The notes under the pieces were generated by a model that made no database searches, was not told the DNA's origin, and saw only the letters and a program-made list of their open reading frames with translations. This document shows, piece by piece, positions 27,237 to 58,913 of a stretch of 62,118 nt of DNA (positions within the stretch are counted from its first letter, which is position 1; every line of letters starts with the position of its first letter). Origin of the DNA: an uncultured Gammaproteobacteria bacterium (GTDB taxonomy: Bacteria > Patescibacteriota > Patescibacteriia > UBA1558 > S5-K13); the NCBI GenBank assembly GCA_964640635.1, contig CAZXFD010000005.1, positions 1-62,118 of the forward strand, given 5' to 3'. A program made the position numbers and the translations under genes.

Positions 27237-27265
27237 TTGACAAATGATTTTTTATATATTATTGT
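27237..27265 (+). promoter_or_regulatory. Sigma70-type promoter of orphan gene
   Basis: TTGACA-N17-TATTGT. Confidence 0.55.
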
Positions 27266-27299
27266 ATTGTTAATAAAAAAATATATTTCGGGAGGAATA

Positions 27300-28229
27300 A
27301 TGAAAGACAAAATTTATTCAATACCAGTTAAGGATAGGATGGGGTGGTACGAAAAAAAACGAGGATTTATGCATATTTTTCATATTGTAGTCTTTGTTAT
27401 TCTAATTATAACGTTGATGTTTGTCGCGTTTGAAGTAGATCAAAAAGCAAGATTTTTATCAGCCAAGGTAATAATAATTTGTTTTATTATAAATTCGATA
27501 ATTTATTTTATTCATTGGTTAAATAATCCATATACCATCATGTTATTGAATTATAATAAAGAAAGGCCATCAGTAACTATGATGCCAATTCATCCTAAAT
27601 CAATAAAAGAATGTATTAAGATACACTCGAATGATGAGGGTGTTTTTTATGATATCTTGAAACAGTTTTATTCGTTTTATTGTTGTTATCCAGTTGAAGG
27701 TGATATGTGTTTAGGGGATTATATTTTGGAAAATTATTCAGAGTATAAGGATGACCCAGAGGTAATGGTTTTCGCAAGTGATAAATGGCTTTTGAATTAT
27801 TTTAAAAGAAATGATTTTAGTGAAGCTAGTTTAAAGTTGATATTTACAATAGCTTTCTTTGACGACAATCTGAGAAATCATCACCCAGGAATTATGCGTA
27901 GCCTAGATAAAACCTATATGGAAAACAATGTTTTGGGTGGAATTGGAATGATGTTGGACGAAGATTATAAGAAGGCGCGTAGAAAAAAGTATAATGGACT
28001 TTGTGTCTGTCAGATGTCTCATAGTGCCACGTTAATGTTGAGAATGATTAATGGTTATTATTTAGATATAGATATTAAAGACAAAAAGACCTATGTCGTA
28101 GATTGGCTGTTTGATAATATAGAAAGGCCATATGAAGATTTGATAGATCATACACTTACTTTGGAGGGTGTCCGTGATAATGGAATACTAAAAAAACATA
28201 TTCTAGAGAAATATTCAGAAAAAAATTGA
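27300..28229 (+). CDS. Orphan protein with 2 N-terminal TM helices
   Basis: GGGAGG at 27290-27295 before ATG 27300; no recognisable family; terminator AACCGCA/TGCGGTT plus T-run at about 28237-28267. Confidence 0.75.
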   Translation: MKDKIYSIPVKDRMGWYEKKRGFMHIFHIVVFVILIITLMFVAFEVDQKARFLSAKVIIICFIINSIIYFIHWLNNPYTIMLLNYNKERPSVTMMPIHPKSIKECIKIHSNDEGVFYDILKQFYSFYCCYPVEGDMCLGDYILENYSEYKDDPEVMVFASDKWLLNYFKRNDFSEASLKLIFTIAFFDDNLRNHHPGIMRSLDKTYMENNVLGGIGMMLDEDYKKARRKKYNGLCVCQMSHSATLMLRMINGYYLDIDIKDKKTYVVDWLFDNIERPYEDLIDHTLTLEGVRDNGILKKHILEKYSEKN

Positions 28230-28279
28230 AACAATAACCGCATCATTTAAATATGTGCGGTTTTTTTGTTTAATCAATA

Positions 28280-28308
28280 TTGACAAAGTTTTTCATTCGT
28301 GTTAGACT
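28280..28308 (+). promoter_or_regulatory. Sigma70-type promoter of rlpA-like gene
   Basis: TTGACA-N17-TAGACT with extended TG. Confidence 0.65.
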
Positions 28309-28343
28309 TGTTTTCCAAAATACAAAAAAATACAGGAGTAACA

Positions 28344-28796
28344 ATGAAAATAATCACCTTATTGATTATAATGTCGTTTATCATTGGAATAATGTTTATT
28401 CCAGTTATATGCCTTAGCGATCTTCATGCAAAAAATGCATGTCAACAAACGGACCTTGGAAATTCAACTCAAGTTAAGAAAAGTGTCACAATAGAAAAAA
28501 CTATTTACGGTAAGTCTTCTTGGTATGGGCAGTACTTTCATGGTCGTACGATGGCAAATGGAGATCTATTTGACATGTATGATCCTACAATCATTGCTCA
28601 CAAATATTTACCATTTGGTACAATACTCAAAATTACGAATATCCAAAATGGTAAGTCTCTTGAGGGCACAGTGCAGGATAGAGGACCTTATGTAGTAGGA
28701 AGAGACATAGATTTATCTTATGCTGGAGCAAAAATTCTAGGCATGGATGAGCAAGGTGTCGCAAGCATAAAAATGGAGATTTTGCACAAAAGCTAA
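28344..28796 (+). CDS. rlpA: RlpA-family (DPBB) lytic transglycosylase-like protein
   Basis: SSWYG..FHGR.MANG..FDM, AHKYLPFGT, DRGPY, DLSYAGA; CAGGAG before ATG 28344. Confidence 0.9.
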   Translation: MKIITLLIIMSFIIGIMFIPVICLSDLHAKNACQQTDLGNSTQVKKSVTIEKTIYGKSSWYGQYFHGRTMANGDLFDMYDPTIIAHKYLPFGTILKITNIQNGKSLEGTVQDRGPYVVGRDIDLSYAGAKILGMDEQGVASIKMEILHKS

Positions 28797-28972
28797 TCTC
28801 TGGAATTATAAAACAAGCTCGCAGGTTTAATACATGCGAGTTTTTATTTTGATATCATTGAATGAGAAGTCGAATGATTTTATAAAAATGAGTTATATGG
28901 CCTCATAAGAGGAGTTGACTAACTTTACCTCGAGGAATCTAATATGCGCCATGGTGGTATGCCATGAACTCC

Positions 28973-29000
28973 TTGACAAATATTTTAGATGTGCTATAAT
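28973..29000 (+). promoter_or_regulatory. Consensus sigma70 promoter driving a non-coding transcript
   Basis: TTGACA-N16-TATAAT with extended TG. Confidence 0.75.
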
Positions 29001-29006
29001 AGCTTA

Positions 29007-29230: not shown

Positions 29231-29310
29231 CAAATTTAGATTGACAAATTAATATAATAGTTATAATATCAAATGTTAGCAATAAAGCTAATTAAAATTA
29301 GGAGGAAAAA

Positions 29311-29799
29311 ATGAAATATTCACTTTTTATGCTATTAGTCATTGTGATTTCGCTGTTTTCTTTTGGATGTGAATCAAATCCTGTAGAGATAACAGCAACT
29401 GGAAATAACACCGTCTACATAGGTCCAAATTCTGGGTTACCAGGTAATTGTGAGTGGTTTATAATGTATATGACTAATCACGGCCCAGCAATTTTGGCGG
29501 TTAATGGTCCAGCAACTGCCGTTGGGTATCAGATTAGAAGTGGTGCAACCATATATTTTCAAGATAGATATGTTGGTCCTAACGGGGATTCATATCAGTA
29601 TGGTAGCTACTTGCCCTTGGATACTTGGTTGGAGTTTAATTATGTAATTTTCAAGTCTTCTTTTTCCGGTTGGCTTTGGCCTATAGCTGATTTCTGGGTT
29701 GGACTAAATGATGCAATTGTTGAATCTAGCTATCAGTGGCAAGTCAAATTTGTAGATAATGGAGATGGAAATTTACAAGTTGAGCTAGCCGATGAATAA
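29311..29799 (+). CDS. Orphan putative lipoprotein, beta-rich
   Basis: TTGACA at 29241, AGGAGG at 29300-29305, signal peptide ending FSFG|C; terminator at about 29811-29840. Confidence 0.75.
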   Translation: MKYSLFMLLVIVISLFSFGCESNPVEITATGNNTVYIGPNSGLPGNCEWFIMYMTNHGPAILAVNGPATAVGYQIRSGATIYFQDRYVGPNGDSYQYGSYLPLDTWLEFNYVIFKSSFSGWLWPIADFWVGLNDAIVESSYQWQVKFVDNGDGNLQVELADE

Positions 29800-29865
29800 T
29801 CCTTTTAACAAAAAGGCTCGTCACAATAGACGGGCTTTTATTTTTTTTTATCTAAATTCTATATT

Positions 29866-33766: not shown

Positions 33767-33945
33767 GAGTTTAGTTAAGAAGAGGACCTGGGTTCTTTTT
33801 TTATTTGTGGTAAGAGTCGAAAGGTTAAGGATAAATAAGCAAAGTTTGACAAATAAATTTATAAATGATAAGAAAAATACATTACTAAATGCTGGACAAA
33901 AATGTCATAGTAAAGGTAAAAAAAGAATGTACTGGGAGGTACAAA

Positions 33946-34668
33946 ATGAAAAATCTAAATACTGGTAGTTTGCTTCCTGTGCCAAGGGGCGAATTTGAAG
34001 CAAGCATAAACGTTTTAGAAAATGCAGGAATGAAACCCTGGATGTTGAACTTGTTACGTTCATCAAGGGGTGAATTAATTGCAAAGAGAGTAATATCTGT
34101 TTTTATTGAGATTAAGCTAAAGGAATGGCAAGAATTCTATAAAAAATACTTTGATCTCGAGATCGACGTGTTTAATGTTATTTTACCAGATCCTATAAAG
34201 AATTTTGATAAACTCATTATCGTAGTGCCTAGTCTAACTATTGGAAAGGTGTTTGATGTGATGTCCAAGCATTTTAAATGTTCGTGGACGACTGATAAAT
34301 GGGACGGACAATGGCATTTTAAAAAAGAAGACATTCTTAATTATGTTAACTCAGAAGCAAAAAATTATGCATTTTGGGTTAGAGATAGTTCTGAGTCAGA
34401 TCAAAAATATCTTGGGAAGTTAACGGACGAGAATCGGCAGGTGAATTGTCCTATAGAAAATATGCTAGAAGCTTTGCTCCATATTTTCAAAGTCTGGGAT
34501 GAGTCTGGGGAGTTCATTAATTCAAGAACTAATTTACTTACCTATTGCGATGCTTTCCAAGGAGTTTTAATAAGCATTAACTATCGAGGGGCAGGCATAG
34601 TATATGTAAATTTATTTTATGGTTTTGCACGACCTGAACACTGTGGCCCAAGAGAAAAAATAGTTTAA
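33946..34668 (+). CDS. Orphan protein, possible divergent C-type-lectin-fold family member
   Basis: TTGACA at 33846, GGGAGG at 33934-33939; WQEFYKKYF, YAFWVRD..ESD, C-terminal GPRE.IV; terminator at about 34682-34718. Confidence 0.65.
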   Translation: MKNLNTGSLLPVPRGEFEASINVLENAGMKPWMLNLLRSSRGELIAKRVISVFIEIKLKEWQEFYKKYFDLEIDVFNVILPDPIKNFDKLIIVVPSLTIGKVFDVMSKHFKCSWTTDKWDGQWHFKKEDILNYVNSEAKNYAFWVRDSSESDQKYLGKLTDENRQVNCPIENMLEALLHIFKVWDESGEFINSRTNLLTYCDAFQGVLISINYRGAGIVYVNLFYGFARPEHCGPREKIV

Positions 34669-34811
34669 GTAAGAATTGTAGAGCCCTATTTGTAAAAATT
34701 TGCAGACAGGGCTTTTTTGTTTGTATTCGAATCAATCTTGGGTTGGGTATTGATTAATAAAAAAACAGCCACATAAAGGTGTAGCTGTAAGTATTAGTTT
34801 TTACTAAGTCA

Positions 34812-35354
34812 TTAGACTTCGGTGAGTTCGATCTCATCGTCGTTTTGTAGAATGCAGTCTAAGCTTAGGAGTTTTTCTGGATTATCGAACTCATGGACAT
34901 TAAAGTTCTCTGGCAAGGAGAGGGTATCTTTGGTTTGTTCTATAAGTTGAGCAATGGTACTTCCCTCAAGAACTTTTATCGGGTTTCCTTTTCCATCACA
35001 ATATATCCAAACTTCAATTATTCCTGGTTTGGAAAATGTTATCTCCTCTCCGCTTGCGACTGTGGCATCATTGGTGAGAATTTCCCCATAACTTTTTGCT
35101 ATGAGATCAGGTGGTACATTAGATTTTTCTCGGATTTTTGATACGGTGGTTTCTTCTTTAACTTTGATAACCATTTCGGGCTCGATAAATGTGATCTCAT
35201 CATGCTGCTCAACTGAAGCAATATCTCGGAGAACTTTATCCCCAATTTTTGCAATGAATCCCGAGGGGATATTAAATTGTTCCCTGAGTTTGAATAGGGG
35301 CATCTTCCCAAATGAGTTAATGTCCGCATTGTGGATATTAATAATTATTTTCAT
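34812..35354 (-). CDS. Protein with three tandem ubiquitin-like (beta-grasp) repeats
   Basis: Repeats K(L/I)RE..N(I/V)P...IAK..G..L....V...(D/E)EITF..P; TTGACA-N17-TAAGAT promoter, AAGGAGG RBS. Confidence 0.7.
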   Translation of the reverse strand: MKIIINIHNADINSFGKMPLFKLREQFNIPSGFIAKIGDKVLRDIASVEQHDEITFIEPEMVIKVKEETTVSKIREKSNVPPDLIAKSYGEILTNDATVASGEEITFSKPGIIEVWIYCDGKGNPIKVLEGSTIAQLIEQTKDTLSLPENFNVHEFDNPEKLLSLDCILQNDDEIELTEV

Positions 35355-35514
35355 GATTTCCTCCTTGTATTTTTTGATATCTTATTACTTATGTTATATT
35401 TTGTCAACGGGTCATACGACCCGTTTTAATGAAAAATGCCGAACCCCGGATTGGTTAAGTTATAAATAAAAAACAAGGCTTTCGCCTCGTCTTTAGATGT
35501 ATATATAAAAGAAG

Positions 35515-36681: not shown

Positions 36682-37110
36682 ATGCCAACAATAAATCAAT
36701 TAACAAAAAATCCAAGAAAAAATCCAAGAAAAAAGTTGAAAATGATTGGACTTAAGGTTACTTCAAATTCTTTAAGAAGAACAAAGAAAACAAGCAATGT
36801 AGGATCTTCTTTCAAAAGAGGGGTTTGTGTTAAGGTTACTACAGTAACTCCAAAAAAACCTAATTCAGCTCTTAGAAAAATAGCTAGAGTAAGACTTTCA
36901 AATGGATCAGAAGTAACAGCATATATTCCAGGAATGGGTCATAATTTGCAAGAGCATTCAATCGTTTTGATAAGAGGTGGAAGAGTAAAAGATTTATCAG
37001 GTGTTTCTTACCATATAGTAAGAGGTGTCTATGATACTCAGGGTGTCCAAAATAGAGCTCAAGGAAGATCTATTTATGGAGCAAAAAGACCAAAAGAAAA
37101 GAAGGTATAG
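36682..37110 (+). CDS. rpsL: 30S ribosomal protein S12
   Basis: [31 protein letters not shown]. Confidence 0.98.
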
Positions 37111-37115
37111 TTAAT

Positions 37116-37149
37116 TTCTCAGCCAAAGGCTGATCCGCCTCGGGCGGAA
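37116..37149. repeat. Double-hairpin REP-like element (copy 2)
   Basis: TTCTCAGCC-AAA-GGCTG-AT-CCGCC-TCG-GGCGGAA. Confidence 0.8.
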
Positions 37150-37218
37150 AATTTCAAATGTCAAATTTCAAAAGTAAATGTATTTGACTTAAAACTTAAA
37201 ACTTTAAACTTAAACAGC

Positions 37219-37683
37219 ATGAGAGGAAAAAAATCACCAAAAAGAAAAATTGAAGCAGATAAAAAGTTTGCTAATATTGTTATTGCAAAGCTTATTAATT
37301 ATGTAATGAAAGATGGTAAGAAATCAATTGCAGAAGGTATTGTTTATGACGCTATTGATATAGTATCTCAAAAAACAAAACAAGACGGATTATCAGTATT
37401 TACTCAAGCAATGAAAAATATTCAACCATCAGTAGAAGTAAAAGGAAGAAGAGTCGGTGGTGCAAATTATCAAGTTCCTGTCATTGTTTCAGGAGATAGA
37501 AAGAATACACTAGCATTTAGATGGCTTCTTGAAGCAAGTAGATCAAAAAAAGGCAAAAGAATGGCAGAGAAATTAGCTGATGAAATAATTTTAGCTACAA
37601 ACAATGAGGGTGATGCTATAAAGAAGAAAATCAATGTTAATAAAATGGCTGAATCCAATAAAGCTTTTGCACATTTTGGTTAA
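37219..37683 (+). CDS. rpsG: 30S ribosomal protein S7
   Basis: GKKS.AE, VEVK.RRVGGANYQVP, MAESNKAFAHF. Confidence 0.98.
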   Translation: MRGKKSPKRKIEADKKFANIVIAKLINYVMKDGKKSIAEGIVYDAIDIVSQKTKQDGLSVFTQAMKNIQPSVEVKGRRVGGANYQVPVIVSGDRKNTLAFRWLLEASRSKKGKRMAEKLADEIILATNNEGDAIKKKINVNKMAESNKAFAHFG

Positions 37684-37862
37684 TTTTTTAGCTACGTAGA
37701 CGTTGATTTACGTAGTTTATTGTGCGTTTTAATAGGCGAAGTGAATGGCAATCTTAAAGCCCAAGCGCTATAGCGGGGCAAGCTTCCGCCTTTCCACTTC
37801 CGCCTTTTTATTTTATATCTAAATACTTTAAACTTAATACTTTAAACTTTAAATTTAACACT

Positions 37863-39941: not shown

Positions 39942-39991
39942 ACTTGATTTTATTTATAAAATATAGTAACCTTATTTATTGTTAAAAAAAT

Positions 39992-40204: not shown

Positions 40205-40219
40205 AGATAGGTGTCTGAC

Positions 40220-45456: not shown

Positions 45457-45479
45457 ATTAAGCCAACAAGCTAAATAAT

Positions 45480-46016: not shown

Positions 46017-46017
46017 C

Positions 46018-46758: not shown

Positions 46759-46828
46759 TTTTAAATAGCTACTAGCTTTTAAAAGCTGGTAGCCATCTAT
46801 CTAAGGGTAGATTAAGAAAGCTAAAGAT

Positions 46829-47239: not shown

Positions 47240-47243
47240 ATAT

Positions 47244-47441: not shown

Positions 47442-47491
47442 TTAAGTTAGCTATGTAGCTACGGAGCTGTAAAGCTAAGAAGCTGAATAAT

Positions 47492-47746
47492 ATGGAAAAT
47501 AAGCAAAAAAAACAATCTAGAGAATTAAGTGGTGTAGTTGTAAGTAATAAAATGATGAAAACCGTTGTTGTTAAAGTTGATACTACAAAAACTCACAAGA
47601 TCTACAAGAAGAAATATGTTGTCAGCAAAAAATATAAAGCTCATGATGAAACTAATGAATATAAAAAGGGAGATAAAGTTTTAATGAGAGAAACAAAGCC
47701 TGTGTCAAAAGACAAAAAATGGGCAGTAATAAAAAAGATAAAGTAA
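47492..47746 (+). CDS. rpsQ: 30S ribosomal protein S17
   Basis: [32 protein letters not shown]. Confidence 0.98.
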
Positions 47747-47754
47747 TACAGATA

Positions 47755-47825
47755 GTTAGTAAGTTAGCAAGTTAGTTGGTTAGAATGTCTGACCCACTAA
47801 TCACCCTAACCCACTAACCAACTAA
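47755..47825. repeat. 8-nt periodic dyad repeat element
   Basis: GTTAG at 47755/63/71/79 facing CTAA(C) at 47797/806/814/822. Confidence 0.85.
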
Positions 47826-47829
47826 ATAT

Positions 47830-48201
47830 ATGATACAAATGCAAACAATGTTGAATGTCGCTGACAATACTGGAGCAAAAAAAGTCCAGTGTATTAAGGT
47901 ACTCGGTGGAACCAAAAGAAGATATGCAAGAATAGGCGATATTATAATAGTTGCAGTAAAATCAGCACAGCCACATAGTATGGTTAAAAAAAGTGATGTT
48001 CTAAAGGCTGTAATAGTAAGACAAAGAAAAGAATTTAGAAGACCCAGTGGAATGTATGTAAGATTTGATGATAATGCTGTTGTAATAATGGATAAAGATG
48101 CAAAAGAGCCTAGAGGCACAAGAATATTTGGACCAGTCGCAAGAGAATTAAGAGCCGCTGGATATAATAAAATAATTTCACTTGCACCGGAGGTTTTATA
48201 A
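47830..48201 (+). CDS. rplN: 50S ribosomal protein L14
   Basis: [34 protein letters not shown]. Confidence 0.99.
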
Positions 48202-48236
48202 TAGGTTAATAGCATAATTGAATAATAGATATAAGT

Positions 48237-48554
48237 ATGAACACAATTAAAATAAAAAAGAACGATCAAGTAAAAATTCTTTCAGGAAAAGATAAAGGTA
48301 AAACAGGAAAGGTTAATCAGATTTTTGCTAAAGAAGAAAAAATCGTTGTAGAAGGTGTAAATAAAAAATTTAAAAATCTAAGACCAAGAAAAGAAAATGA
48401 AAAAGGTCAAAGAATTGAATTTTTTGGACCAATAGGCATGTCAAAGGCTATGCTTATTTGTAAGAAATGTGGAAGAACAACAAGAATCTCTTACAAAATT
48501 TCAGAAGCAAAAAAATATAGAGTTTGTAAAAAATGTAATGAAGTAATTGATTAG
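48237..48554 (+). CDS. rplX: 50S ribosomal protein L24
   Basis: IKKNDQV..LSGKDKGKTG, VVEGVN, CxxC. Confidence 0.97.
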   Translation: MNTIKIKKNDQVKILSGKDKGKTGKVNQIFAKEEKIVVEGVNKKFKNLRPRKENEKGQRIEFFGPIGMSKAMLICKKCGRTTRISYKISEAKKYRVCKKCNEVID

Positions 48555-48622
48555 TATATAATACCCAGTTAGATTCGCTATTCTAAGATATTAGCGAGAT
48601 AAATAACTGAACAAGCAAAATT

Positions 48623-49210
48623 ATGATAAGTATAAAAGAAAAATACACAAAAGAGGTTATTTCAAAAATGAAAACTGATTTTGGATACAAAAATTCTTTA
48701 TCTGTTCCAAAAATTGAAAAAATTACTTTTAATGTAGGACTAGGTAGAGCTATAACCAACAAAGAATATGTTGCTATTGCAGAAAATACATTATCTAGAA
48801 TTACTGGTCAAAAATCAGTTCAAACAAAAGCAAAAAAATCTATTTCAGCTTTCAAAATTAGAGAAGGAATGATTATTGGAGTAAAGGTTACAATTAGAGG
48901 TAGTAAAATGTATGATTTTTTAGATAAATTAATTAATATTACATTTCCTAGAGTAAGAGATTTCCATGGTATTGATGTAAAAAATAAACATCTGGATTCA
49001 AAAGGAAACTTTGCTTATGGATTTAAAGAATACACTGTTTTTCCAGAAATAAAGGCTGATGAAGTTGAGCATGTTCACGGACTTGAAATTGCCATCACAA
49101 CAACAGCAAAGACAAAGGCAGAGTGTTATTTCTTGTTAAAATATATGGGATTCCCATTTATTATAGATAAAGAATTTGAAGAAAAATTAAAGAATAGTTT
49201 CAAAAAATAA
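48623..49210 (+). CDS. rplE: 50S ribosomal protein L5
   Basis: VPKIEKI..NVG, ITGQK, SAFKIREG, PRVRDF.G. Confidence 0.98.
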   Translation: MISIKEKYTKEVISKMKTDFGYKNSLSVPKIEKITFNVGLGRAITNKEYVAIAENTLSRITGQKSVQTKAKKSISAFKIREGMIIGVKVTIRGSKMYDFLDKLINITFPRVRDFHGIDVKNKHLDSKGNFAYGFKEYTVFPEIKADEVEHVHGLEIAITTTAKTKAECYFLLKYMGFPFIIDKEFEEKLKNSFKK

Positions 49211-49211
49211 T

Positions 49212-49397
49212 ATGGCAACACAAGGACAAATAGCAAAATCAAATAAAAAACCAAAATTTTCAACTAGAATTGTAAGAAGATGTTGGAAGTGCGGTAGAAA
49301 AAGATCATACATGAGAGATTTCAATCTTTGTAGAATCTGTTTTAGAGAACTAGCAAGTAAAGGTGAGATGCCAGGAGTAAAAAAGAGTAGTTGGTAA
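49212..49397 (+). CDS. rpsN: 30S ribosomal protein S14, zinc-binding type Z
   Basis: RCWKCGR...LCRICFRE...G.MPGV.KSSW. Confidence 0.97.
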   Translation: MATQGQIAKSNKKPKFSTRIVRRCWKCGRKRSYMRDFNLCRICFRELASKGEMPGVKKSSW

Positions 49398-49438
49398 TAA
49401 AATAAATAATTAATATAAGTTGATATTACAATAAAATT

Positions 49439-49831
49439 ATGATGACAGATCCAATAGCTGATATGCTAACTAGAATAAGAAACGCTCAGGCTGTTAAAAA
49501 GCAAGAGGTCATTATTCCATTTTCAAAAATTAAATATGAAATTGCTAAGCTGTTAGTAAGAGAGAGCTATCTTAATTCTGCTGAAAAAGTAAAGGAAAAG
49601 TTTGATGTAATTAAAATAGAATTAAAATACAGCCCTACAGGAGAATCAGCAATAGAACATATAAAAAGAATATCAAAGCCAGGACAGAGAATCTATGTAG
49701 CAAGTGATAAATTGCCAAAAGTTTTGAATGATATTGGTCTTGCTATTATTTCTACATCAAGTGGAATAATAACCAACAAAAAGGCAAGAAGAATGAAGGT
49801 TGGCGGAGAATTTTTATTTGAAATATGGTAA
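49439..49831 (+). CDS. rpsH: 30S ribosomal protein S8
   Basis: TDPIADMLTRIRNA, RISKPGQRIY, STSSG. Confidence 0.98.
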   Translation: MMTDPIADMLTRIRNAQAVKKQEVIIPFSKIKYEIAKLLVRESYLNSAEKVKEKFDVIKIELKYSPTGESAIEHIKRISKPGQRIYVASDKLPKVLNDIGLAIISTSSGIITNKKARRMKVGGEFLFEIW

Positions 49832-49904
49832 AGAGATGAAGATCTAGGGGCAAAAGACGAAAGTTTTTATAGCCTATAAATTTATAACTTTTTAATTAAA
49901 ATAT

Positions 49905-50459
49905 ATGTCAAGAATAGGAAAATTACCAGTTGTTATACCAGAAAAAGTTGATGTAAAAATCAGCGATGTTTCTATTGAAGTTTCTGGACCAAAGGGAAAG
50001 TTAATAGAACTATTAGTTCCTGATACAAAAACAGAGATAGTTGAAGAAAATGGTCAAAAACAAATTATAATAAGTATTGATGACGATACTGACAAAAATA
50101 AAAGAGCAAAATGGGGACTACAGAGAAGTCTTATTGCTAATATGGTAATAGGTGTTGTAAGTGGATATGAAAAAAAATTAGAAATAAATGGAGTGGGTTT
50201 TAAAGCAGAAGCAAAGCCAGGAATGGTTCTTTTAAATGTTGGTTTTTCTCATCAAGTTGAATATAAATTACCAGAAGGTGTTGGCGCAGTTGTAGAAAAA
50301 AATGTTATCACGCTTATCGGAATAAGTAAGCAATTAGTTGGTCAAACAGCAGCTGAAATAAGAGCAATCAAAAAACCAGAACCATACAAAGGAAAAGGTA
50401 TTAAATATTCAGATGAAATAATTAGAAGAAAAGTAGGAAAAGTTGCTAAATCAGGCTAA
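49905..50459 (+). CDS. rplF: 50S ribosomal protein L6
   Basis: MSRIGKLP, GPKG, GFSH, KPEPYKGKGI. Confidence 0.98.
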   Translation: MSRIGKLPVVIPEKVDVKISDVSIEVSGPKGKLIELLVPDTKTEIVEENGQKQIIISIDDDTDKNKRAKWGLQRSLIANMVIGVVSGYEKKLEINGVGFKAEAKPGMVLLNVGFSHQVEYKLPEGVGAVVEKNVITLIGISKQLVGQTAAEIRAIKKPEPYKGKGIKYSDEIIRRKVGKVAKSG

Positions 50460-50505
50460 CAATTAAATCAGCTACGTAGCTACGTAGCCAATAAGCTAAA
50501 ATCAT

Positions 50506-50859
50506 ATGGATAAAAATAAATTAAAAAATAGCACAAAAGAAAGAAAGACTAATAGGGTAAGAAAAACTATCAAAAGTAGTTCAAAAAGACCAAGATTGTC
50601 AGTATTCTTTAGTTTACTTCATTCTTATGCTCAGATTATAGATGATTCAAAAGGTGTAACTATGGTAAGTGCAAGTGATAAAGAATTAAAGAATAAAGGA
50701 AAAAACATTGAAATAGCAAAAGAACTCGGAAAACTTATAGCAACAAAAGCAAAAGAGAAAAAAATAGAAACAGTTGTTTTCGATAGAGGATTTAAGAAAT
50801 ATCATGGCAAGGTCAAAGCACTTGCAGATGGTGCAAGAGAAGAAGGATTAAAATTTTAA
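50506..50859 (+). CDS. rplR: 50S ribosomal protein L18
   Basis: [36 protein letters not shown]. Confidence 0.97.
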
Positions 50860-50868
50860 TATATTTAT

Positions 50869-51432
50869 ATGGAAGACAAAAAATCAACATTTGATAGATC
50901 AAACAATAGAAGACAAGTACCAAGAGAAAAACCAGAGTTTGAACAAAAGCTCGTCGATCTTGCAAGAGTCACTAGAGTTATGGCAGGTGGAAAAAGACTA
51001 AGATTCAGAGCTTGTGTTGTTATAGGTGATTTTAATGGTAGACTTGGATGGGGTATCGCAAAAGGTGCCGATGTTTCAATTGCTATAAATAAGGCAGTGA
51101 ATCAAGCAAAAAAAAGACTTATAGACGTAAAGATTTATAAGAATACTATAAGACATGAAGTGCTTGGAAAATTCAAGTCAGCTCAAGTATTTATTAAGCC
51201 AGCTACAGAAGGTCGTGGAATTATTGCTGGAGGTGTTGTAAGAGATTTATTAGAGCTATCAGGTATTAAAGATGCTATTGCAAAAATTTATGGTGCTAAA
51301 AATAAAATGAATAATGTAAAAGCCGTTTTTAAAGCACTAGATCAATTAAAAGATATACAAGAAGAAGTAGTGGTAGAGGCTGAGGCAACTAAAGAAATCA
51401 AAAAAGAGGAAATTAAAGAAGAAAATAAATAA
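50869..51432 (+). CDS. rpsE: 30S ribosomal protein S5
   Basis: RVTRVMAGG.R.RF, VVIGD, KPA.EG.GIIAGG. Confidence 0.98.
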   Translation: MEDKKSTFDRSNNRRQVPREKPEFEQKLVDLARVTRVMAGGKRLRFRACVVIGDFNGRLGWGIAKGADVSIAINKAVNQAKKRLIDVKIYKNTIRHEVLGKFKSAQVFIKPATEGRGIIAGGVVRDLLELSGIKDAIAKIYGAKNKMNNVKAVFKALDQLKDIQEEVVVEAEATKEIKKEEIKEENK

Positions 51433-51444
51433 TTTAATTATATA

Positions 51445-51520
51445 GTCAGATAGTTAGTCAGTTAGTCAGAACGTTAGAAATTTCCTAACCAACTAACAAG
51501 CTAACTTACTAACCTACTAA
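51445..51520. repeat. 8-nt periodic dyad repeat element at the position where rpmD would lie
   Basis: GTTAG/GTCAG arm facing CTAA(C) at 51485/493/501/509/517. Confidence 0.8.
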
Positions 51521-51524
51521 ATAT

Positions 51525-52016
51525 ATGTTAACACTCAGTAATTTAAAAGTTCAAAAAGGAGCTAAACAAAAGAAACAAAGACTAGGTCGTGGAGATGCTT
51601 CTGGTCGTGGTAATTATTCTGGACATGGAATGAAGGGGCAGAAAGCAAGGGCTGGTGTTTCAGGACTCAAAAGATTGGGTATGAAGAAAAATATAGCTCA
51701 ACTTCCAAAGCACCGAGGATTCAATAGACAATCTACAATATTTAATATAGTAAATATTAATATACTTGAGAAATATTTTAAATCAGGTGAAGAAGTCAAT
51801 GTAAATAGTCTTCTAAAATTAGGATTTATTAATGATATCAAAAACCCTTTGAAAATTTTATCAAAAGGAAGTTTGACCAAAAAACTTACAGTGAAGGCTC
51901 ATCATTTTTCAAAAACAGCAAAAGATGCAATAATAAAAGCTGGAGGAAGTGTTGTTGAAACTCCAAGAATAAAAAGAAACAATCCAGCAAGAAAAGTACC
52001 TATAATCAAAAAATAA
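51525..52016 (+). CDS. rplO: 50S ribosomal protein L15
   Basis: RLGRG..SG.G..SG.G.KGQKAR, PKHRGF, KILSKG. Confidence 0.97.
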   Translation: MLTLSNLKVQKGAKQKKQRLGRGDASGRGNYSGHGMKGQKARAGVSGLKRLGMKKNIAQLPKHRGFNRQSTIFNIVNINILEKYFKSGEEVNVNSLLKLGFINDIKNPLKILSKGSLTKKLTVKAHHFSKTAKDAIIKAGGSVVETPRIKRNNPARKVPIIKK

Positions 52017-52017
52017 G

Positions 52018-53301
52018 ATGTTTTTAGATAAAATAAAACAAATATATAAAATAAGAGATTTAAGAAACAGTATTGTATTTGTTTTAGTGATGCTTTTGGT
52101 AAGTAGAATTGTTTACCATATTCCAATTCCAGGACTTGATATTGTAACTTTGAGAAATTTATTTCAATCAAATCAATTTTTGGGACTTATGGATTTGTTC
52201 TCCGGTGGAGGACTTACTAATTTTTCTATAGCAATGTTGGGCGTTGGTCCTTATATTACAGCTTCTATCATTATTCAGCTTCTTTCAATGATCGTTCCCC
52301 AATTAGAGGCTCTTACAAAAGAAGGTGAAGAAGGTCAGAGAAAAATAAATGCTTATACAAAATATCTTACTATTCCACTTGGAGCTATGCAGGCTTATGG
52401 ATTTTTGACATTACTTCAAAAATCTGCAAATACACCAATTCTATCAAATCTTAGCGGACTTCAATATGCAGCAGTAATTATTACAATTACAGCAGGAACG
52501 TTCTTCTTGGTTTGGATAGGAGACCTTATTACTGAAAAGAAAATTGGAAATGGTGTATCATTGCTTATTTTTGCTGGAATAGTTGCAAAACTTATTTCCA
52601 CAACAAAAAATATTTTTGTAGTATATGACGCAAGCAAGATATTTAGTTTATTGGTATTTGTTGCAACAGCAATACTTACAATAGTTGTTGTTGTGATGGT
52701 AAATGAAGGCCAGAGAAATATTCCTGTGTCATATGCAAGAAGAGTAAGGGGAAATAAAGTTTTCGGAGGTGTAAATACTCACTTGCCACTCAAGGTAAAT
52801 CAATCAGGAGTTATTCCAATTATTTTTGCTATTTCTCTTATTATGTTTCCTACAATGATAGCAAGATTTTTTGCTGCCGCTGGAAATCAGACAATAGCTT
52901 CTATTTCAAATTGGGTTATTAATTTATTTCAAAATCAAGTTTTCTACGGTGTGATATATTTCTTACTTGTATTTGCATTTACATATTTTTATACAGCTGT
53001 TATATTTCATCCAGACAAAATTGCAGAAAATCTCCAAAAACAAGGTGGATTTGTACCAGGTATTAGACCAGGAAGCCATACGGCACAGTATTTACAAAAC
53101 ATCGTATCACGTATCAATTTAGCAGGAGCACTTTTCCTTGGTATTGTAGCCGTGCTTCCAGTAGTTTTGCAAGGTCTTACAAGAGGAATTGGATCTACCG
53201 TGATTGGTGGAACAAGTATTTTGATTGTTGTATCAGTTGTAATTGAAACAGTAAAACAAATAGATTCTCAGCTTACAATGAGAAATTATGATAAGCTTTA
53301 G
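52018..53301 (+). CDS. secY: Preprotein translocase SecY
   Basis: HIPIPG, LGVGPYITASII, GNGVSL, PIIFA, GGFVPGIRPG, GGTSILI. Confidence 0.99.
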   Translation: MFLDKIKQIYKIRDLRNSIVFVLVMLLVSRIVYHIPIPGLDIVTLRNLFQSNQFLGLMDLFSGGGLTNFSIAMLGVGPYITASIIIQLLSMIVPQLEALTKEGEEGQRKINAYTKYLTIPLGAMQAYGFLTLLQKSANTPILSNLSGLQYAAVIITITAGTFFLVWIGDLITEKKIGNGVSLLIFAGIVAKLISTTKNIFVVYDASKIFSLLVFVATAILTIVVVVMVNEGQRNIPVSYARRVRGNKVFGGVNTHLPLKVNQSGVIPIIFAISLIMFPTMIARFFAAAGNQTIASISNWVINLFQNQVFYGVIYFLLVFAFTYFYTAVIFHPDKIAENLQKQGGFVPGIRPGSHTAQYLQNIVSRINLAGALFLGIVAVLPVVLQGLTRGIGSTVIGGTSILIVVSVVIETVKQIDSQLTMRNYDKL

Positions 53302-53367: not shown

Positions 53368-53396
53368 TTGACATATAGCATTAAATATGATATATT
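53368..53396 (+). promoter_or_regulatory. Sigma70 promoter of inserted orphan gene
   Basis: TTGACA-N17-TATATT with extended TG. Confidence 0.7.
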
Positions 53397-53406
53397 ACCA
53401 TGTTAT

Positions 53407-53418
53407 TGTTCTTTAACA
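53407..53418 (+). promoter_or_regulatory. boxA-like antitermination motif
   Basis: TGTTCTTTAACA, 11/12 match to E. coli rrn boxA TGCTCTTTAACA, a few nt after the predicted TSS. Confidence 0.5.
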
Positions 53419-53545
53419 TAAATGTAACAGAGTGCCTTCTTTGAGGGATTTTTTGCAAGAATTAAAATATTCAAAATTTGAAGGTCGTTTTAAGCGACAA
53501 TTGTTTTTAATTTAATAAAAATGGTGACCAAAAAAGGAGGAAACC

Positions 53546-54415
53546 ATGTCAACAAATGCTAAAGAAACAAGAGTTGTTAGAGGACTTGAAAAGGGTATGG
53601 AGCTTGAGCTTCGTACATATTCAAGGTGTGGTGAGGTTCTGTTTGAAAGATGCGTTGCTGCTGAAAGTCAAAGGATGGTGTATTTTAACGTCCATAAGAA
53701 AAATTTGTCTGATCAGGGCAAGCTTCAAAGTGGGCGGGCTAAGTCGGTTTGGAGGGTAATCGTAGATGCAATATTCGATAACGAAAAAAGTATATGTGTT
53801 TATGTACACTTACCAGACCCAGAAAGAATCTCACATGAGGAGTTTTCCGTGGCCGGATATACAAATGGTCAAGAAATTACGGTCATGGTGGGAAGCCTCA
53901 ATGATGATACCAAATACATTCTCTCGGATAATCGTCAGGATGGTATTAGAATTAGATTCCATATCGATGAGGAAAATGAAGAGCAATTTAAAAAACTCAA
54001 CTCCTCAGTTTATGGTGATAAATGGCTTGCCAGAGTGGTCTTTTTAAAACCCCCCAATGATGAGAGTAGGGGTCAAAAAACAGTCCATGCAAATATAGAG
54101 CTATTAGGCTCTGAACCCATATCCAAGATTGTGTTTGATGAATTCCGGACAGGAAATTATTATTCCGTGTCCGTTACCATCAACCCTCAAAAGGTTAATC
54201 AACTTTGCTCCATTTTTCGTAGTGGAAAGAAGGTTCTCTTTTGCCTTGACCAGGAGAGAGAGGACTACAAAGAAAGTAGAGAATATCTTCAAACCCTCAA
54301 GGTGGGATGGAATACGAGATTTACTGTTACCAGAGCTAAAATTGGTAACAAAGAGGTCGTAATTTACGGTTATCTTAATGATGCTGTAAATAAAAAACAG
54401 AAAACCACCGCATAA
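53546..54415 (+). CDS. Orphan protein with three degenerate ~90-aa beta-rich (OB-like) repeats
   Basis: AAGGAGG RBS; repeats begin GLEKGMEL, GYTNGQEI, EFRTGNYY; higher GC than flanks. Confidence 0.7.
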   Translation: MSTNAKETRVVRGLEKGMELELRTYSRCGEVLFERCVAAESQRMVYFNVHKKNLSDQGKLQSGRAKSVWRVIVDAIFDNEKSICVYVHLPDPERISHEEFSVAGYTNGQEITVMVGSLNDDTKYILSDNRQDGIRIRFHIDEENEEQFKKLNSSVYGDKWLARVVFLKPPNDESRGQKTVHANIELLGSEPISKIVFDEFRTGNYYSVSVTINPQKVNQLCSIFRSGKKVLFCLDQEREDYKESREYLQTLKVGWNTRFTVTRAKIGNKEVVIYGYLNDAVNKKQKTTA

Positions 54416-54653
54416 TCCAGCGCGGCAAAAATATATGGAGGCTAGGTCCAACGTGATCGATGCCTCTTTTTTATATGCGAATATTACGATACTAATATAT
54501 TAATGTATGCTAATAATACTAATATAAAAATAGTACGAATGAATTTGTATAAATTTGTATAATTAGCATACATCAGCATATTGGCATTGTGCTCAAAATA
54601 GGGTAATATTTATTTAGTATTTAATCATATTAATTTAATCTAAAGACAAAGTA

Positions 54654-56621: not shown

Positions 56622-57690
56622 AATTATATTTTATAGTTGTTTATTTTTAGCTTCATTTTTATTGAGCTATTTTTTGATACCTTTTTTTAGAAAACTTTCT
56701 ATAAAACTAGGTATTTTAGATATACCTCAGGGAGATAGAAAAATTCATGAACAACCAATGCCACTTCTTGGGGGTTGGGCAATATTTGTTTCTTTTTTGA
56801 TTTGTTTGTTTGCAATTATTTTGATAAGACCAGGACTTATAAGTGGATCAACTAGTTATATTCATGTTATTGCAATAGTTGTTTCTGGATTTTTACTTAT
56901 GATTATGGGCACCTTAGATGATAAATATAATTTGTCTGCAAAAAAACAATTGTTTTGGGTAATTTTAGTATGTCTTATAATTATTTTATCTGGGGTAGCT
57001 ATTAAATTTATAACTCGTCCTGGTGGAGGAGTGATAGATCTTACCCTAGGATTAAAATATAATTTTCTAGGAATAAATATTTATCTAATAGGATCTCTTA
57101 TTACATTTGCTTGGCTTATAATAATGACAAATTCTACGAAATTATTAGATGGCCTAGATGGCTTGTCTAGTGGAGTAGTTTTTATAGGGATGATAATTCT
57201 TTTTATAGTTAGTCTATTTTGGGATAAACCAGATAGCCTTACGTCAGTTCTTACGATTATTTTTGCAGGTGCAATATTAGGGTTTTTAATTTTTAATTTC
57301 CACCCAGCAAAAATATTTTTAGGAAATGGAGGGAGCAATCTACTAGGTCTTTATTTGGGGGTTTTTGCTATCATAAGTGGAGCAAAAATAGCTACAGCAC
57401 TTCTTGTAATGGGTGTGGCTGTTATAGATATGTTTTGGGTAGTCATTCAAAGATTGTTTAGAAAAGAAGCGCCATTCAAGCATGCCGATAGGAAGCACCT
57501 TCATTTTAGACTACTTGATTTGGGATTTAGTCACAAACAAAGCGTTTTGATAATATATTTTATATCATTATTTTTTGGTACTATATCGCTTTTTCAAAAC
57601 ACTACTGGGAAGATTATAATGACACTTTTTTTGTTGCTTTTTATGTTTTCAATATTTTTTTATATTTACAAAAAGAATGCAAAAGTTTAA
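56611..57690 (+). CDS. MraY/WecA/TagO-like polyprenyl-phosphate GlcNAc-1-P transferase
   Basis: RKIHE.PMPLLGG, GTLDD, LLDGLDGL, FNF.PAKIFLG, DRKHLH.RL; start set at ATG 56611. Confidence 0.9.
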   Translation: MLNKIIFYSCLFLASFLLSYFLIPFFRKLSIKLGILDIPQGDRKIHEQPMPLLGGWAIFVSFLICLFAIILIRPGLISGSTSYIHVIAIVVSGFLLMIMGTLDDKYNLSAKKQLFWVILVCLIIILSGVAIKFITRPGGGVIDLTLGLKYNFLGINIYLIGSLITFAWLIIMTNSTKLLDGLDGLSSGVVFIGMIILFIVSLFWDKPDSLTSVLTIIFAGAILGFLIFNFHPAKIFLGNGGSNLLGLYLGVFAIISGAKIATALLVMGVAVIDMFWVVIQRLFRKEAPFKHADRKHLHFRLLDLGFSHKQSVLIIYFISLFFGTISLFQNTTGKIIMTLFLLLFMFSIFFYIYKKNAKV

Positions 57691-58123
57691 GAAAATTTTA
57701 TTACTTGTTATATCGCTTTGTATTGTCTCGGGATGTGCTAATTCTAATAGTGAAGAAACAAAAGGTAAAAATATTTTATTGAAGAATGAAACCATCAAAG
57801 TAGAAATAGCAGATACACAATATCTAAGAGAGAGAGGGCTTTCTTATAGAACTGATTTGTGTAAGGAGTGTGGCATGCTTTTTCTTTTTAAAAGCTATAA
57901 AAATTATGCATTTTGGATGAAGGACATGAATTTTCCGCTGGATATAATTTATTTGAAAGATAATAAAGTTGTTGAAATTTTTAAATCAGTTCCCCTTACA
58001 ACTGGAGATAAAATAACTCAAATTTATCCTCAAAATGAGGCTAATATGGTCTTGGAGCTAAACTCGGGATGGTCAGATAGTCACAATCTAGAGATAGGGG
58101 ACAATATTGACATTTTAGATTAA
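57677..58123 (+). CDS. DUF192 family lipoprotein
   Basis: Lipobox IVSG|C; VEIADT...ERGLS.R, GMLFLF, FWMK.M.FPLDII, VLELNSG. Confidence 0.9.
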   Translation: MQKFKKILLLVISLCIVSGCANSNSEETKGKNILLKNETIKVEIADTQYLRERGLSYRTDLCKECGMLFLFKSYKNYAFWMKDMNFPLDIIYLKDNKVVEIFKSVPLTTGDKITQIYPQNEANMVLELNSGWSDSHNLEIGDNIDILD

Positions 58124-58173
58124 ATGTATTAACATTATTACACGATAATAATTCAATTACTAAGTATAACAAT

Positions 58174-58509
58174 ATGGAAAAAACAGTAGCTAAAGACTTA
58201 AAAATAGCCATTATAAGGACAGGTGGTAAACAATACAAAGTCAAAGAAGGTAGTAAAGTAAAAGTAGAAAAACTAGAAGGTGAGCTAGAATCAAAGATAA
58301 TCTTGGAGGATGTTTTATTTATCTCAGACGCAGATGGAGAAAACATTGAACTTGGAACCCCAGTATTAGATAGAAAAATTGAAGCAAAAATAATCAAACA
58401 AGCAAGAGCTCCTAAGATAAGGGTGGTAAAATACAAGAACAAGACAAGATATCATAAGGCATATGGTCACAGACAGCACTTTACAGAGCTTGAAATCACA
58501 AAAATATAA
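58174..58509 (+). CDS. rplU: 50S ribosomal protein L21
   Basis: AII.TGGKQYKV, GTPVL, GHRQ.FTEL.I. Confidence 0.97.
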   Translation: MEKTVAKDLKIAIIRTGGKQYKVKEGSKVKVEKLEGELESKIILEDVLFISDADGENIELGTPVLDRKIEAKIIKQARAPKIRVVKYKNKTRYHKAYGHRQHFTELEITKI

Positions 58510-58528
58510 GAATATCACGTATTATATA

Positions 58529-58556
58529 AAAAAGTCCCTAATAAGGGATTTTTTTG
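58529..58556 (+). terminator. Intrinsic terminator after rplU
   Basis: AAGTCCCT/AGGGATTT stem plus T-run. Confidence 0.65.
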
Positions 58557-58623
58557 TGTTTCTGGGTATACTTGATTTATCTAATATAATATGATTTAAT
58601 TATATGTTAAAAAAGGAGGAATC

Positions 58624-58830
58624 ATGGAAAATATGCCATTTTTGCACAATATCATTTTTTACGTGTTGTTATTGCTTTGTATGCTTGAGGGCCTTGGAAG
58701 AATATTGGGGAAAAAAGGACTTGGCGTAAAAGCGGGTAAGAAGATTATACGAGGCTTAATTAATTTATTAGCCCTTGTATTTAGAGAGGGCGGTAAGGTT
58801 CTTTTAAAATTAGCTAAATCAATTAAGTAA
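58624..58830 (+). CDS. Small orphan membrane protein
   Basis: AAGGAGG before ATG; TM plus amphipathic basic helix; terminator AACCGAG/CTCGGTT at about 58830-58860. Confidence 0.65.
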   Translation: MENMPFLHNIIFYVLLLLCMLEGLGRILGKKGLGVKAGKKIIRGLINLLALVFREGGKVLLKLAKSIK

Positions 58831-58913
58831 ACCGAGCAAAAAACTCGGTTTATTTTTTTTGCTTATTTATAGAAGATGAGATTGAGTTATGATACGGGAT
58901 TGAACTTTTTAGT

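Follow-up and report, generated by a model that had tools for sequence, protein, structure and literature searches.

Gene content of the window and its relatives

The DNA analysed here, contig CAZXFD010000005.1, is apparently an entire metagenomic contig of 62,118 bp, and this whole stretch is referred to below as the window. Seven of its approximately 68 genes carry a Shine-Dalgarno (SD) sequence, strong in six of them, before the start codon, and it is with these SD-led genes, and with the way in which they differ from their neighbours, that this analysis is concerned. The GC content of the window is about 31%, and its sequence is present at a read depth of about 20x in four wastewater runs. 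SecY, EF-G and other encoded proteins have their closest relatives in metagenome-assembled genomes labelled Candidatus Komeilibacteria, Parcubacteria or Patescibacteria and, judged from these proteins, the window is part of a Ca. Komeilibacteria-like genome of the Patescibacteria. The gene order starts with surface proteins, a type IV pilus cluster, RelA, TopA, a Mur ligase and DprA, continues with Pth, Der, an LCP protein, bL28 and an M50 protease, proceeds to rpsL-rpsG-fusA-tuf and the S10/spc ribosomal protein genes up to secY, and closes with adk, map, ruvX, a glycosyltransferase, a DUF192 protein and bL21. A search with Rfam found no rRNA in the window, and the universal 16S motifs are absent from all 168 loci fetched for comparison; rpsU, rpsR, rpsF and the 16S gene lie outside both the window and the fetched loci.

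The relatives compared at the nucleotide level include the loci L081 (~87-91% identity), L167 (~82%) and L166, which belongs to the same genome as L003 (~72%); contigs from X5 and X7 were compared as well. L082 shares ~58-59% amino acid identity in the LCP, Der and M50 proteins and is the sole near relative among the EF-G matches listed. A scan with Der led to one locus, and an exact look-up of bL28 returned zero matches.

Seven genes with an SD sequence

Open reading frames (ORFs) were called mechanically, and the 18 nt 5' of each candidate start were scored for pairing with CACCUCCU. A near-perfect (A)GGAGG is located 4-6 nt 5' of the ATG in six of the approximately 68 genes, and the seventh, the RlpA-like gene that starts at position 28344, has AGGAG. 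The duplex energies are bimodal: the genes starting at 27300, 29311, 33946, 35354, 53546 and 58624 range from -9.9 to -11.3 kcal/mol, while nearly all of the remaining genes, about 60, are weaker than -5.5 kcal/mol. The intermediate values are those of 28344 (-6.6 kcal/mol, the weakest SD of the seven), S3 (46018; -7.1, from a GGGAG 9 nt upstream) and recR (60469-61062; -7.1, with poor spacing). When every GGAG in the window was listed, the seven accounted for essentially all of the well-spaced SD-led starts. In each of them the motif is complementary to the CCUCC core of 16S rRNA (-6.6 to -11.3 kcal/mol), and the distance of 4-6 nt from its GGAG(G)/AGGAGG core to the start codon, found also in 13 further units of relatives, lies within the canonical spacing of ~4-9 nt. 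The set of SD-led genes that an earlier note on this DNA had described, with a strong GGAG(G) or AGGAGG a few nucleotides before the ATG, is confirmed at all seven starts, that of 28344 being weaker.

Such matches could in principle be due to chance, or to start codons having been picked to fit an SD. The longest ORFs of the genes at 27300 and 28344 do begin upstream, at TTG/GTG, and the gene at 33946 has an upstream ATG. Yet the alternative upstream starts fall within predicted promoters, the motif is kept in orthologues, and the contrasts in family membership and in GC content at third codon positions (GC3), given below, are independent of the choice of start. Moreover, a comparable site is located upstream of only about 1% of the ATG triplets in the window, for which six in 68 genes corresponds to a binomial P of ~7e-5 to 3e-6. 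Duplex scores, GC3, chance rate and the count in the near clade effectively refute an artefact, to which we attach next to no probability. The public gene calls used the upstream extensions (259 aa for the gene at 33946 and 333 aa for a homologue of that at 27300); three of the seven have such longer ORFs, and gene callers trained on the rule 'no SD' would mis-start these genes.

Architecture of the SD-led units

As the earlier note had it, each of the seven genes is equipped with its own promoter and its own terminator, both predicted from the sequence. A -35 box of the TTGAC/TTGAT type with a -10 box was recognised, by scan or by eye, before all seven (predicted TTGACA-N17-type promoters), and a hairpin followed by a U-tract was predicted 3' of all seven. 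The SD-led units thus are, on these predictions, self-contained promoter-SD-ORF-terminator modules, and they are designated below by the position of the start codon. They are flanked by secY/adk, dprA/pth, LCP/rpmB and rplU/tRNA-Val. The description of the units as solitary holds less well, as c27300, c28344, a small RNA gene and c29311 make up a single island, flanked by DprA/RAYT and Pth, and c33946 and c35354 are a convergent pair. The promoters themselves are not peculiar to these units. TTGACA-type promoters also precede bL28, bL21, tRNA-Ser and the small RNA gene, TTGACAAA being found before bL28 and the small RNA and TTGACAAT before tRNA-Ser, so that the promoters of the units are, by their sequence, of the host type.

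The unit c27300 (27237..28267, + strand) consists of a promoter at 27237-27265, the SD GGGAGGA at 27290-27296 (3 nt to the ATG, 4 nt from the GGAGG core), a coding sequence (CDS) at 27300-28229 and a terminator at 28237-28267. Its product of 309 aa has two hydrophobic segments at the N-terminus and belongs to no family (GC3 0.277). In c28344 (28280..28850, +), the promoter at 28280-28308 is followed by the weaker SD CAGGAGT at 28333-28339 (4 nt to the ATG, 5 nt from AGGAG), the CDS at 28344-28796 and the terminator at 28817-28850; the product of 150 aa, with a signal peptide and an RlpA/DPBB domain, is the only one of the seven with a known family. The third member of the island, c29311 (29241..29849, +), has its promoter at 29241-29269, the SD TAGGAGGA at 29299-29306 (4 nt to the ATG, 5 nt from AGGAGG), its CDS at 29311-29799 and its terminator at 29812-29849, and encodes a protein of 162 aa with a lipoprotein-type signal ending in FSFGC.

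Further downstream, c33946 (33846..34722, +) includes a promoter at 33846-33874, the SD GGGAGGT at 33934-33940 (5 nt to the ATG, 6 nt from GGAGG), a CDS at 33946-34668 for a protein of 240 aa without a family (GC3 0.307), and a terminator at 34681-34722. Its convergent partner c35354 (34759..35407, - strand) reads from a promoter at 35407-35379 through the SD AAGGAGGA at 35366-35359 (4 nt to the ATG, 5 nt from AGGAGG) and a CDS at 35354-34812 to a terminator at 34788-34759; its product of 180 aa contains three internal repeats, has no family, and shows the highest GC3 of the window (0.370). The last unit of all, c58624 (58572..58860, +), has a -35 TTGATT with a -10 box at 58572-58600, the SD AAGGAGGA at 58613-58620 (3 nt to the ATG, 4 nt from AGGAGG), a CDS at 58624-58830 and a terminator at 58829-58860. 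The -35 box is TTGACT in the relative L002. The product of 68 aa has a hydrophobic segment at the N-terminus and an amphipathic tail rich in lysine and glycine, and would on this basis resemble small membrane-active peptides of the type I toxin kind.

The unit between secY and adk, c53546 (53368..54472, +), is set apart by its long leader. The promoter at 53368-53396 scores 11/12 and is followed by a leader of ~145 nt, the SD AAGGAGGA at 53534-53541 (4 nt to the ATG, 5 nt from AGGAGG), the CDS at 53546-54415, which encodes an ORFan of 289 aa, and the terminator at 54437-54472. The leader (53397-53545) is kept among the window, L002 and L003 until ~45 nt 5' of the ATG, and includes two small elements of a hairpin and a U-run (53435-53447 and 53484-53498) along with a CCUUCU stretch that could pair with the SD. 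The fold of this leader is no better than that of shuffled sequences (z = -0.75) and no credible Rfam match was found in it; neither fold nor Rfam gave a credible regulatory RNA in the spacer at 17.2-17.6 kb.

Starts without an SD sequence

The other 61 starts of the window follow a different pattern, with A at -6 (80%), -5 (78%) and -3 (60%), T at -1 (62%), and G at only 3-8% from -8 to -3. Adenines at -3 and -6 have been measured as start determinants in the SD-poor Flavobacterium johnsoniae (PMC6847099), and the SD-less start context of the window matches them. A core block at 36682..53301 (+), comprising rpsL-rpsG-fusA-tuf and the S10/spc ribosomal protein genes to secY, has A-rich, G-poor leaders without a strong SD, the best being that of S3, and the same genes seldom have an SD in 80 related loci. 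Likewise SD-less is the type IV pilus cluster at 5717..16056 (+), which encodes PilM, PilB/T-like ATPases, PilC and four pilins. It had been claimed that most ribosomal protein, pil and replication genes have only A/T-rich leaders, and A-rich, G-poor leaders lacking a strong SD are indeed what they show. The core genes also have strongly A-ending codons, with a GC3 of ~0.19.

Two other reasons for this pattern were considered and rejected. Operon position does not account for the absence of an SD, as promoter-proximal core genes also lack it: bL28, bL21, rpsL and the gene for a surface protein of 952 aa have recognisable promoters and leaders of 10-110 nt without an SD. Nor do the core genes use an alternative SD that would fit an altered 16S tail, because the conserved AAnAAT at -6 to -1 is too near to the start codon for such a helix, and no other common motif was found.

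Many of these leaders are preceded by short tandem arrays. Spacers of the core operons contain 3-5 copies of units of 7-8 nt (ACTTAAA, GCTGAAA, CTAAAAA, TAGGAAAC and others), most of which include a stop codon, and the arrays end 2-7 nt 5' of at least 10 start codons that have no SD; no SD-led start is preceded by one. Examples are located at 5686-5710, 6877-6899, 37187-37214, 37825-37858, 43048-43083, 44162-44192, 45111-45145, 47792-47825, 48198-48234, 51485-51520 and 53299-53328. There are 4-10 arrays per 10 kb in the window and L001-L003, compared with a median of 0.9 in ~160 Patescibacteria loci, and the unit sequence at one junction varies among relatives. Elsewhere in the window, a unit of 20 nt, GTTTATCCCGCTAAGGCGTGG, is repeated in 2.9 head-to-tail copies at 61403-61461, directly upstream of a minus-strand gene (61109-61396).

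Two small genes are also SD-less. One encodes a membrane protein of 55-64 aa and is located after the LCP gene at 33508-33702 (+); it is kept in the window, L166 (5932-6123), L167 and L082 (2611-2778). The absence of an SD there indicates that small size by itself does not predict the use of an SD. In the window, a -10-like box is located only ~6 nt before its ATG, and the transcript is possibly leaderless. The other is an ORF of 70 aa between fusA and tuf (39992-40204, +) with a sub-threshold match to the Phd/YefM antitoxins (E = 3e-5); no ORF for a partner toxin was seen beside it.

Distribution of strong SDs in related genomes

Twelve near-clade loci were used to relate SD strength to gene conservation, with genes that have homologues in at least 10 outside loci taken as core. 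A strong SD is present in 0 of 197 core genes and in 20 of 128 non-core ORFs, namely 17 of the 105 without an outside homologue and three of the 23 with 1-9 outside homologues. The SD-led genes differ also in GC3 (0.30 vs 0.19; P = 6e-9). SD motifs are consequently not equally common in core genes, and the two initiation classes that had been postulated do exist in these counts as a split between core and accessory genes. Strong SDs are uncommon throughout the group. In the larger set of 161 Patescibacteria loci (~2.7 Mb), the proportion of genes with a strong SD falls from 11.6% for those with no homologue elsewhere to 3.9% for those conserved in at least 20 loci, and the SD-led rare genes have a GC3 above that of their own locus (P = 1e-6).

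Presence, absence and replacement of the units

Examination of orthologous sites in sister genomes revealed that the units are present, absent or replaced. In L081, c27300 is missing in its exact extent, with the junction inside a repeated TTGACAAA -35 box, and the X7 contig has the same deletion joint (27215->28275); the unit is absent also in L166 and present in L167 and X5. L081 keeps c28344 and c29311, and has a different TTGACT/AAGGAGGA/terminator unit, of 75 aa, where the window has 120 nt. L167 likewise has c28344, which is absent at the orthologous site of L166, and the X5 contig skips the region of c29311 (29120->29990). The gene order in L166 is DprA, the small RNA, a c29311 homologue, an extra SD-led gene of 157 aa, Pth, Der, LCP, a gene of 63 aa, bL28 and M50, and its conserved junctions are without the RAYT gene, c27300, c28344, c33946 and c35354. 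At the junction between the LCP and 64-aa genes and bL28, L166 and L082 are without c33946, which L167 (77% aa identity) and X5 do have and which has zero coverage in X6/X7; in L082 the gap between LCP and bL28 has an unrelated GGAGG-led ORF of 77 aa. Similarly, L167, L162 and X5 have c35354, and it is missing from L166 and L082. For c58624, tblastn yielded a match only in L002 (97% aa identity) among the 161 loci.

Two sites illustrate replacement. Between secY and adk there is no unit in L004 and L006, a c53546 homologue in L003 (60% aa identity) and in L002 (34%), and, in L005 (301 and 58 aa) and L007 (137 aa), AGGAGG-led ORFs that are unrelated to it. The window and L002 share 82-84% nucleotide identity until 46 nt 5' of the ATG, diverge over 53500-54392, and resume their similarity 24 nt before the stop codon; with proteins that are 34% identical, the exchange involves the coding part only. 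At the c29311 site, the homologue in L081 is 89% identical in amino acid sequence, and those in L166 and L167 are ~31% identical to that of the window and 76% identical to each other. The alignment between the window and L167 halts at 29317 and resumes at 29807, again a replacement of the CDS only, and L167 has at this site an SD-led gene of 138 aa along with a lipoprotein of 216 aa whose identity is 31% to the copy of the window and 76% to that of the more distant L166.

Vertical conservation with syntenic orthologues, the alternative to turnover, is found in part, for some units and over short evolutionary distances. It would be expected if the units were native, vertically inherited lineage-specific genes for surface, interaction or immunity functions that evolve fast under diversifying selection, their absences being deletions. 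Weak codon adaptation would then raise GC3, and an SD would be needed as the mRNAs contain less A and are more structured. This account draws on the fact that L167 keeps c27300, c28344, c33946 and c35354 in synteny, that the c29311 and c53546 families occupy fixed sites across the clade, that three of the seven products have signal or membrane segments, and that the units have host-type promoters. Against it stand the CDS-only segments with 31-34% identity inside flanks that are 82-84% identical, the unrelated ORFs at one junction in different lineages, and the fact that L081 and the window each have a unit that the other is missing. L166 is the more distant genome, yet the c29311 allele of L167 resembles the one in L166 (76%) more closely than the one in the window, which also fits allele replacement better than clock-like divergence. 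We consider this account unlikely.

Composition, orphan status and origin of the units

Six of the seven SD-led genes have no family in Pfam, NCBIfam, PHROG or PADLOC, as had been supposed, compared with five of ~61 other genes without a Pfam family (Fisher P = 3e-5; ~33 of the non-SD genes were scanned, and the ribosomal protein and translation factor genes were assigned by gene order). The requested comparison of GC content, which the earlier note had left to be done, gave a clear result: the seven genes occupy the top seven GC3 positions among 67 genes (0.277-0.370, against a mean of 0.193; Mann-Whitney P = 1.7e-5), so that GC3 separates them perfectly from the other 60, and the frequency of A at third positions is lower in them. 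Deep searches returned two close relatives for c27300, and for the c53546 family two matches in 5.8e9 proteins and four representatives in 1.84e9. The AlphaFold model of c53546, from an alignment of two sequences, has a confidence (pLDDT) of 35, too low to be of use. Scans with PHROG and PADLOC found no match to the units, with the exception of PHROG matches to the RlpA domain of c28344, and scans of viral contigs with c27300, c35354 and c33946 were empty.

The proposal that these are portable cassettes of distinct origin is therefore borne out in one half. The units are self-contained, deviate in composition, and are present, absent or replaced in sister genomes; a foreign source is not supported, with no donor or phage relative found and promoters of the host type. 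Composition and turnover are what would speak for a distinct origin. Integron- or insertion sequence (IS)-type mobility was considered and rejected, there being no shared recombination site, integrase or bounding repeats. The units have promoters of their own, unlike integron cassettes, and share no imperfect palindrome or flanking repeats, and there is no integrase gene in the window. A gene resembling the REP-associated tyrosine transposases (RAYT; 26640-27176, -) and three pairs of REP (repetitive extragenic palindrome)-like hairpins do exist, none of which bounds a unit. The RAYT-like gene has 2-3x the depth of its surroundings in run X1 and is thus multi-copy; in L081 it is replaced by other DNA, and it is absent in L166. 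The REP-like double hairpin TCAGCCnnnGGCTGATCCGCCnnnGGCGG is located at 33737-33765 (-), 37119-37147 (+) and 60436-60464 (-), where none would be expected by chance.

Another question is whether the SD is read by the ribosome of this organism. In the c53546 orthologues of the window, L003 and L002, AGGAGG and its spacing are unchanged and the rest of the leader has diverged. The leaders at the c29311 site in the window, L081, L166 and L167 keep AGGAGG or AAGGAG, with raised GC3, and differ at other positions; the motif is also kept in c27300 and c33946 of the window and L167. Altogether, near-perfect motifs are present in more than 15 independent units of at least eight genomes. Since the SD is kept in diverged syntenic orthologues, the ribosome of the host probably reads it, a conclusion drawn from the conservation of the motif. 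The orthologues of c29311 and c53546, from genomes ~72-82% identical, retain both the SD and the raised GC3, and this suggests a signature that is maintained and not merely imported. On the sequence evidence, GC3 and SD together are the maintained property of a gene class more than the mark of recent arrival.

Otherwise the units would be relics, i.e., recent imports from SD-using donors such as phages, plasmids or host bacteria, with AGGAGG, GC3 and terminators as baggage of the donor, and a recipient ribosome blind to the motif, its anti-SD being lost or hidden. That the units are compositionally deviant, orphan and indel-polymorphic would agree with this, as would the avoidance of SDs by the core genes and the literature on loss of the anti-SD motif in a subgroup of Parcubacteria. 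The invariance of AGGAGG and its 4-6-nt spacing in the otherwise diverged leaders of the two orthologue sets just described argues the other way, and among more than 15 independent near-perfect units in at least eight genomes, neutral relics should have decayed at 31% GC. In addition, the units have promoters of the TTGACAAA type that is the host's own, and no donor or viral relatives were found. Relics are in our view very unlikely.

A candidate small RNA with an anti-SD-like loop

Between c28344 and c29311 is located a candidate small RNA (sRNA) gene (29007-29195, +), with a promoter at 28973-29000 (12/12; TTGACA-16-TATAAT) and a terminator at 29163-29195. The body of ~185 nt has a fold z-score of -4.2. 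Its core is 100% identical in L081, where the neighbouring genes are 87-91% identical, and all substitutions at paired positions of the 54-pair consensus fold in L166, L167 and X5-X7 preserve pairing. The apical loop CCCCUCCU (29065-29072) is invariant and equals the anti-SD motif of 16S rRNA. In four genomes the sRNA is directly 5' of an SD-led unit. No Rfam family matches it at E <= 1, and two pattern scans of metagenomes were empty. In the Firmicutes, sRNAs of the RsaE/RoxS type pair with SD regions through C-rich loops. The candidate would similarly expose a C-rich, CCUCC-containing loop complementary to GGAGG; it differs from them in carrying just one loop motif, and is unrelated to them by sequence or in Rfam.

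This RNA raises the possibility that the SD is kept so that flexible genes can be switched as a group, either via the availability of the 16S anti-SD or via an sRNA that masks their SDs. The strong promoter (12/12), the structure and conservation of the sRNA with its invariant CCCCUCCU loop, and its place upstream of an SD-led unit in four genomes are in favour of it, and SD-specific control in an SD-poor lineage has a precedent, as bS21 in Flavobacteriia changes the availability of the 16S anti-SD (PMC9976891, PMC13000453). A link from loop to targets would rest on complementarity to the 6-nt SD core only, and a scan for duplexes between the whole sRNA and the start regions, made without accessibility, did not single out the SD-led genes. 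The sequence covered here includes neither rpsU nor genes for the platform proteins of the 30S subunit. Group switching of this kind is, on balance, quite unlikely. A bolder version, in which SD/anti-SD pairing no longer serves general initiation and has become a dedicated channel for the flexible genome, used by strain-variable orphan units alone and switched by an sRNA mimic of the anti-SD or by exposure of the 16S tail, is offered as a speculation of low probability. If true, it would give SD-poor bacteria a functional reason for keeping the anti-SD, and place a built-in expression gate on new or hypervariable genes.

Two probable start-site regimes

Taken together, the results would best be explained by two start-site regimes within one genome, divided between core and flexible genes, with the SD serving the flexible units as a portable signal, and we hold this explanation to be reasonably probable. 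In the first regime, conserved genes (ribosomal proteins, pili, replication and repair, envelope enzymes) have no SD, whether internal to operons or promoter-proximal. The second comprises ~10% of genes, as short monocistronic units of a predicted TTGACA(AA) promoter, an (A)GGAGG and a predicted terminator, orphan or of narrow distribution and with GC3 of 0.28-0.37. These form the flexible genome, being inserted, deleted, or exchanged as ribosome-binding site plus CDS within conserved promoter and terminator flanks. The host 30S subunit would keep a usable CCUCC tail, and ordinary SD-anti-SD pairing would recruit it to the mRNAs of the units. A new or fast-diverging, GC-richer ORF might in this way be translatable at once, and be spared the A-rich adaptation needed for SD-independent initiation. 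Turnover probably occurs by homologous or short-homology recombination in the common flanks, for which the deletion junction of c27300 in the duplicated TTGACAAA -35 box offers support.

Several points weigh against these two regimes. Across the 161 loci the enrichment of SDs is only ~3-fold, weaker than in the near clade, and some lineages carry an SD on ribosomal protein genes such as L24 and S8, and on Map. The synteny of c27300, c28344, c33946 and c35354 in L167, which is 82% identical, implies slow mobility and maybe loss rather than gain. Of the Parcubacteria 16S genes in the study of Tsurumaki et al. (2022; PMC9297842), only 48% had the CCTCCT motif. The promoters and terminators are consensus predictions, the sets of non-core ORFs include some spurious ones, and the comparison covers ~62 kb from the genome of the window and pieces of ~20 kb from related ones. 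Of the runs searched, none of the RNA runs holds the sequence of the window, and only wastewater and soil DNA runs do.

Why SD-poor lineages such as the Bacteroidia and some members of the candidate phyla radiation have kept the anti-SD is an open question, and here the residual SD is found on accessory orphans with fast turnover. This suggests that new or hypervariable genes may use the SD as a plug-and-play signal for translation in a genome with a core that has moved to context-dependent initiation. The combination of SD, GC3 and promoter/terminator frame could be a simple signature of the flexible genome in uncultured Patescibacteria, and the CDS-only swaps within kept frames point to recombination-based allele exchange at fixed expression sites.

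Comparison with known systems

Within the same superphylum, the Parcubacteria reported to lack a 16S anti-SD (Tsurumaki et al. 2022, PMC9297842) resemble the present case in that most genes can do without SD pairing there too. That study dealt with the rRNA motif alone, whereas the lineage of the window keeps perfect, conserved SDs on a subset of genes, which argues for an anti-SD that would be intact in this lineage. In Bacteroidia such as Flavobacterium johnsoniae, the anti-SD is present but sequestered, by bS21, bS18 and bS6, and an SD is retained on a few genes such as rpsU (PMC6847099, PMC7797042, PMC9976891, PMC13000453). The low GC content, the SD-less core, the adenines at -3 and -6, the depletion of G and the small minority of strong SDs are shared with them, and the core genes have both features of SD-blind starts of the Bacteroidia type, i.e., no SD (0/197) and A-rich positions -6 and -3 (80% and 60%). 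In contrast to the Bacteroidia, the SD-led minority of ~10% consists of strain-variable orphan units and includes no autoregulatory gene for a ribosomal protein, and the promoters are of the TTGACA/TATAAT type.

With regard to architecture, the units recall the phage morons, which Juhala/Hendrix et al. are said to have described in 2000 as autonomous promoter-gene-terminator insertions of deviant composition between conserved genes. Like them, the units have a predicted promoter and terminator of their own, are inserted between genes that are adjacent in relatives, deviate in composition and mostly encode products without a functional label. Unlike morons, they do not reside in a phage or prophage but are flanked by chromosomal housekeeping genes, and the CDS can be swapped with promoter and terminator left in place. 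By analogy, then, the closest counterparts of the SD-led units are the Bacteroidia system, in which other genes keep the SD, and the phage morons, which are alike in architecture but not set among chromosomal housekeeping genes.

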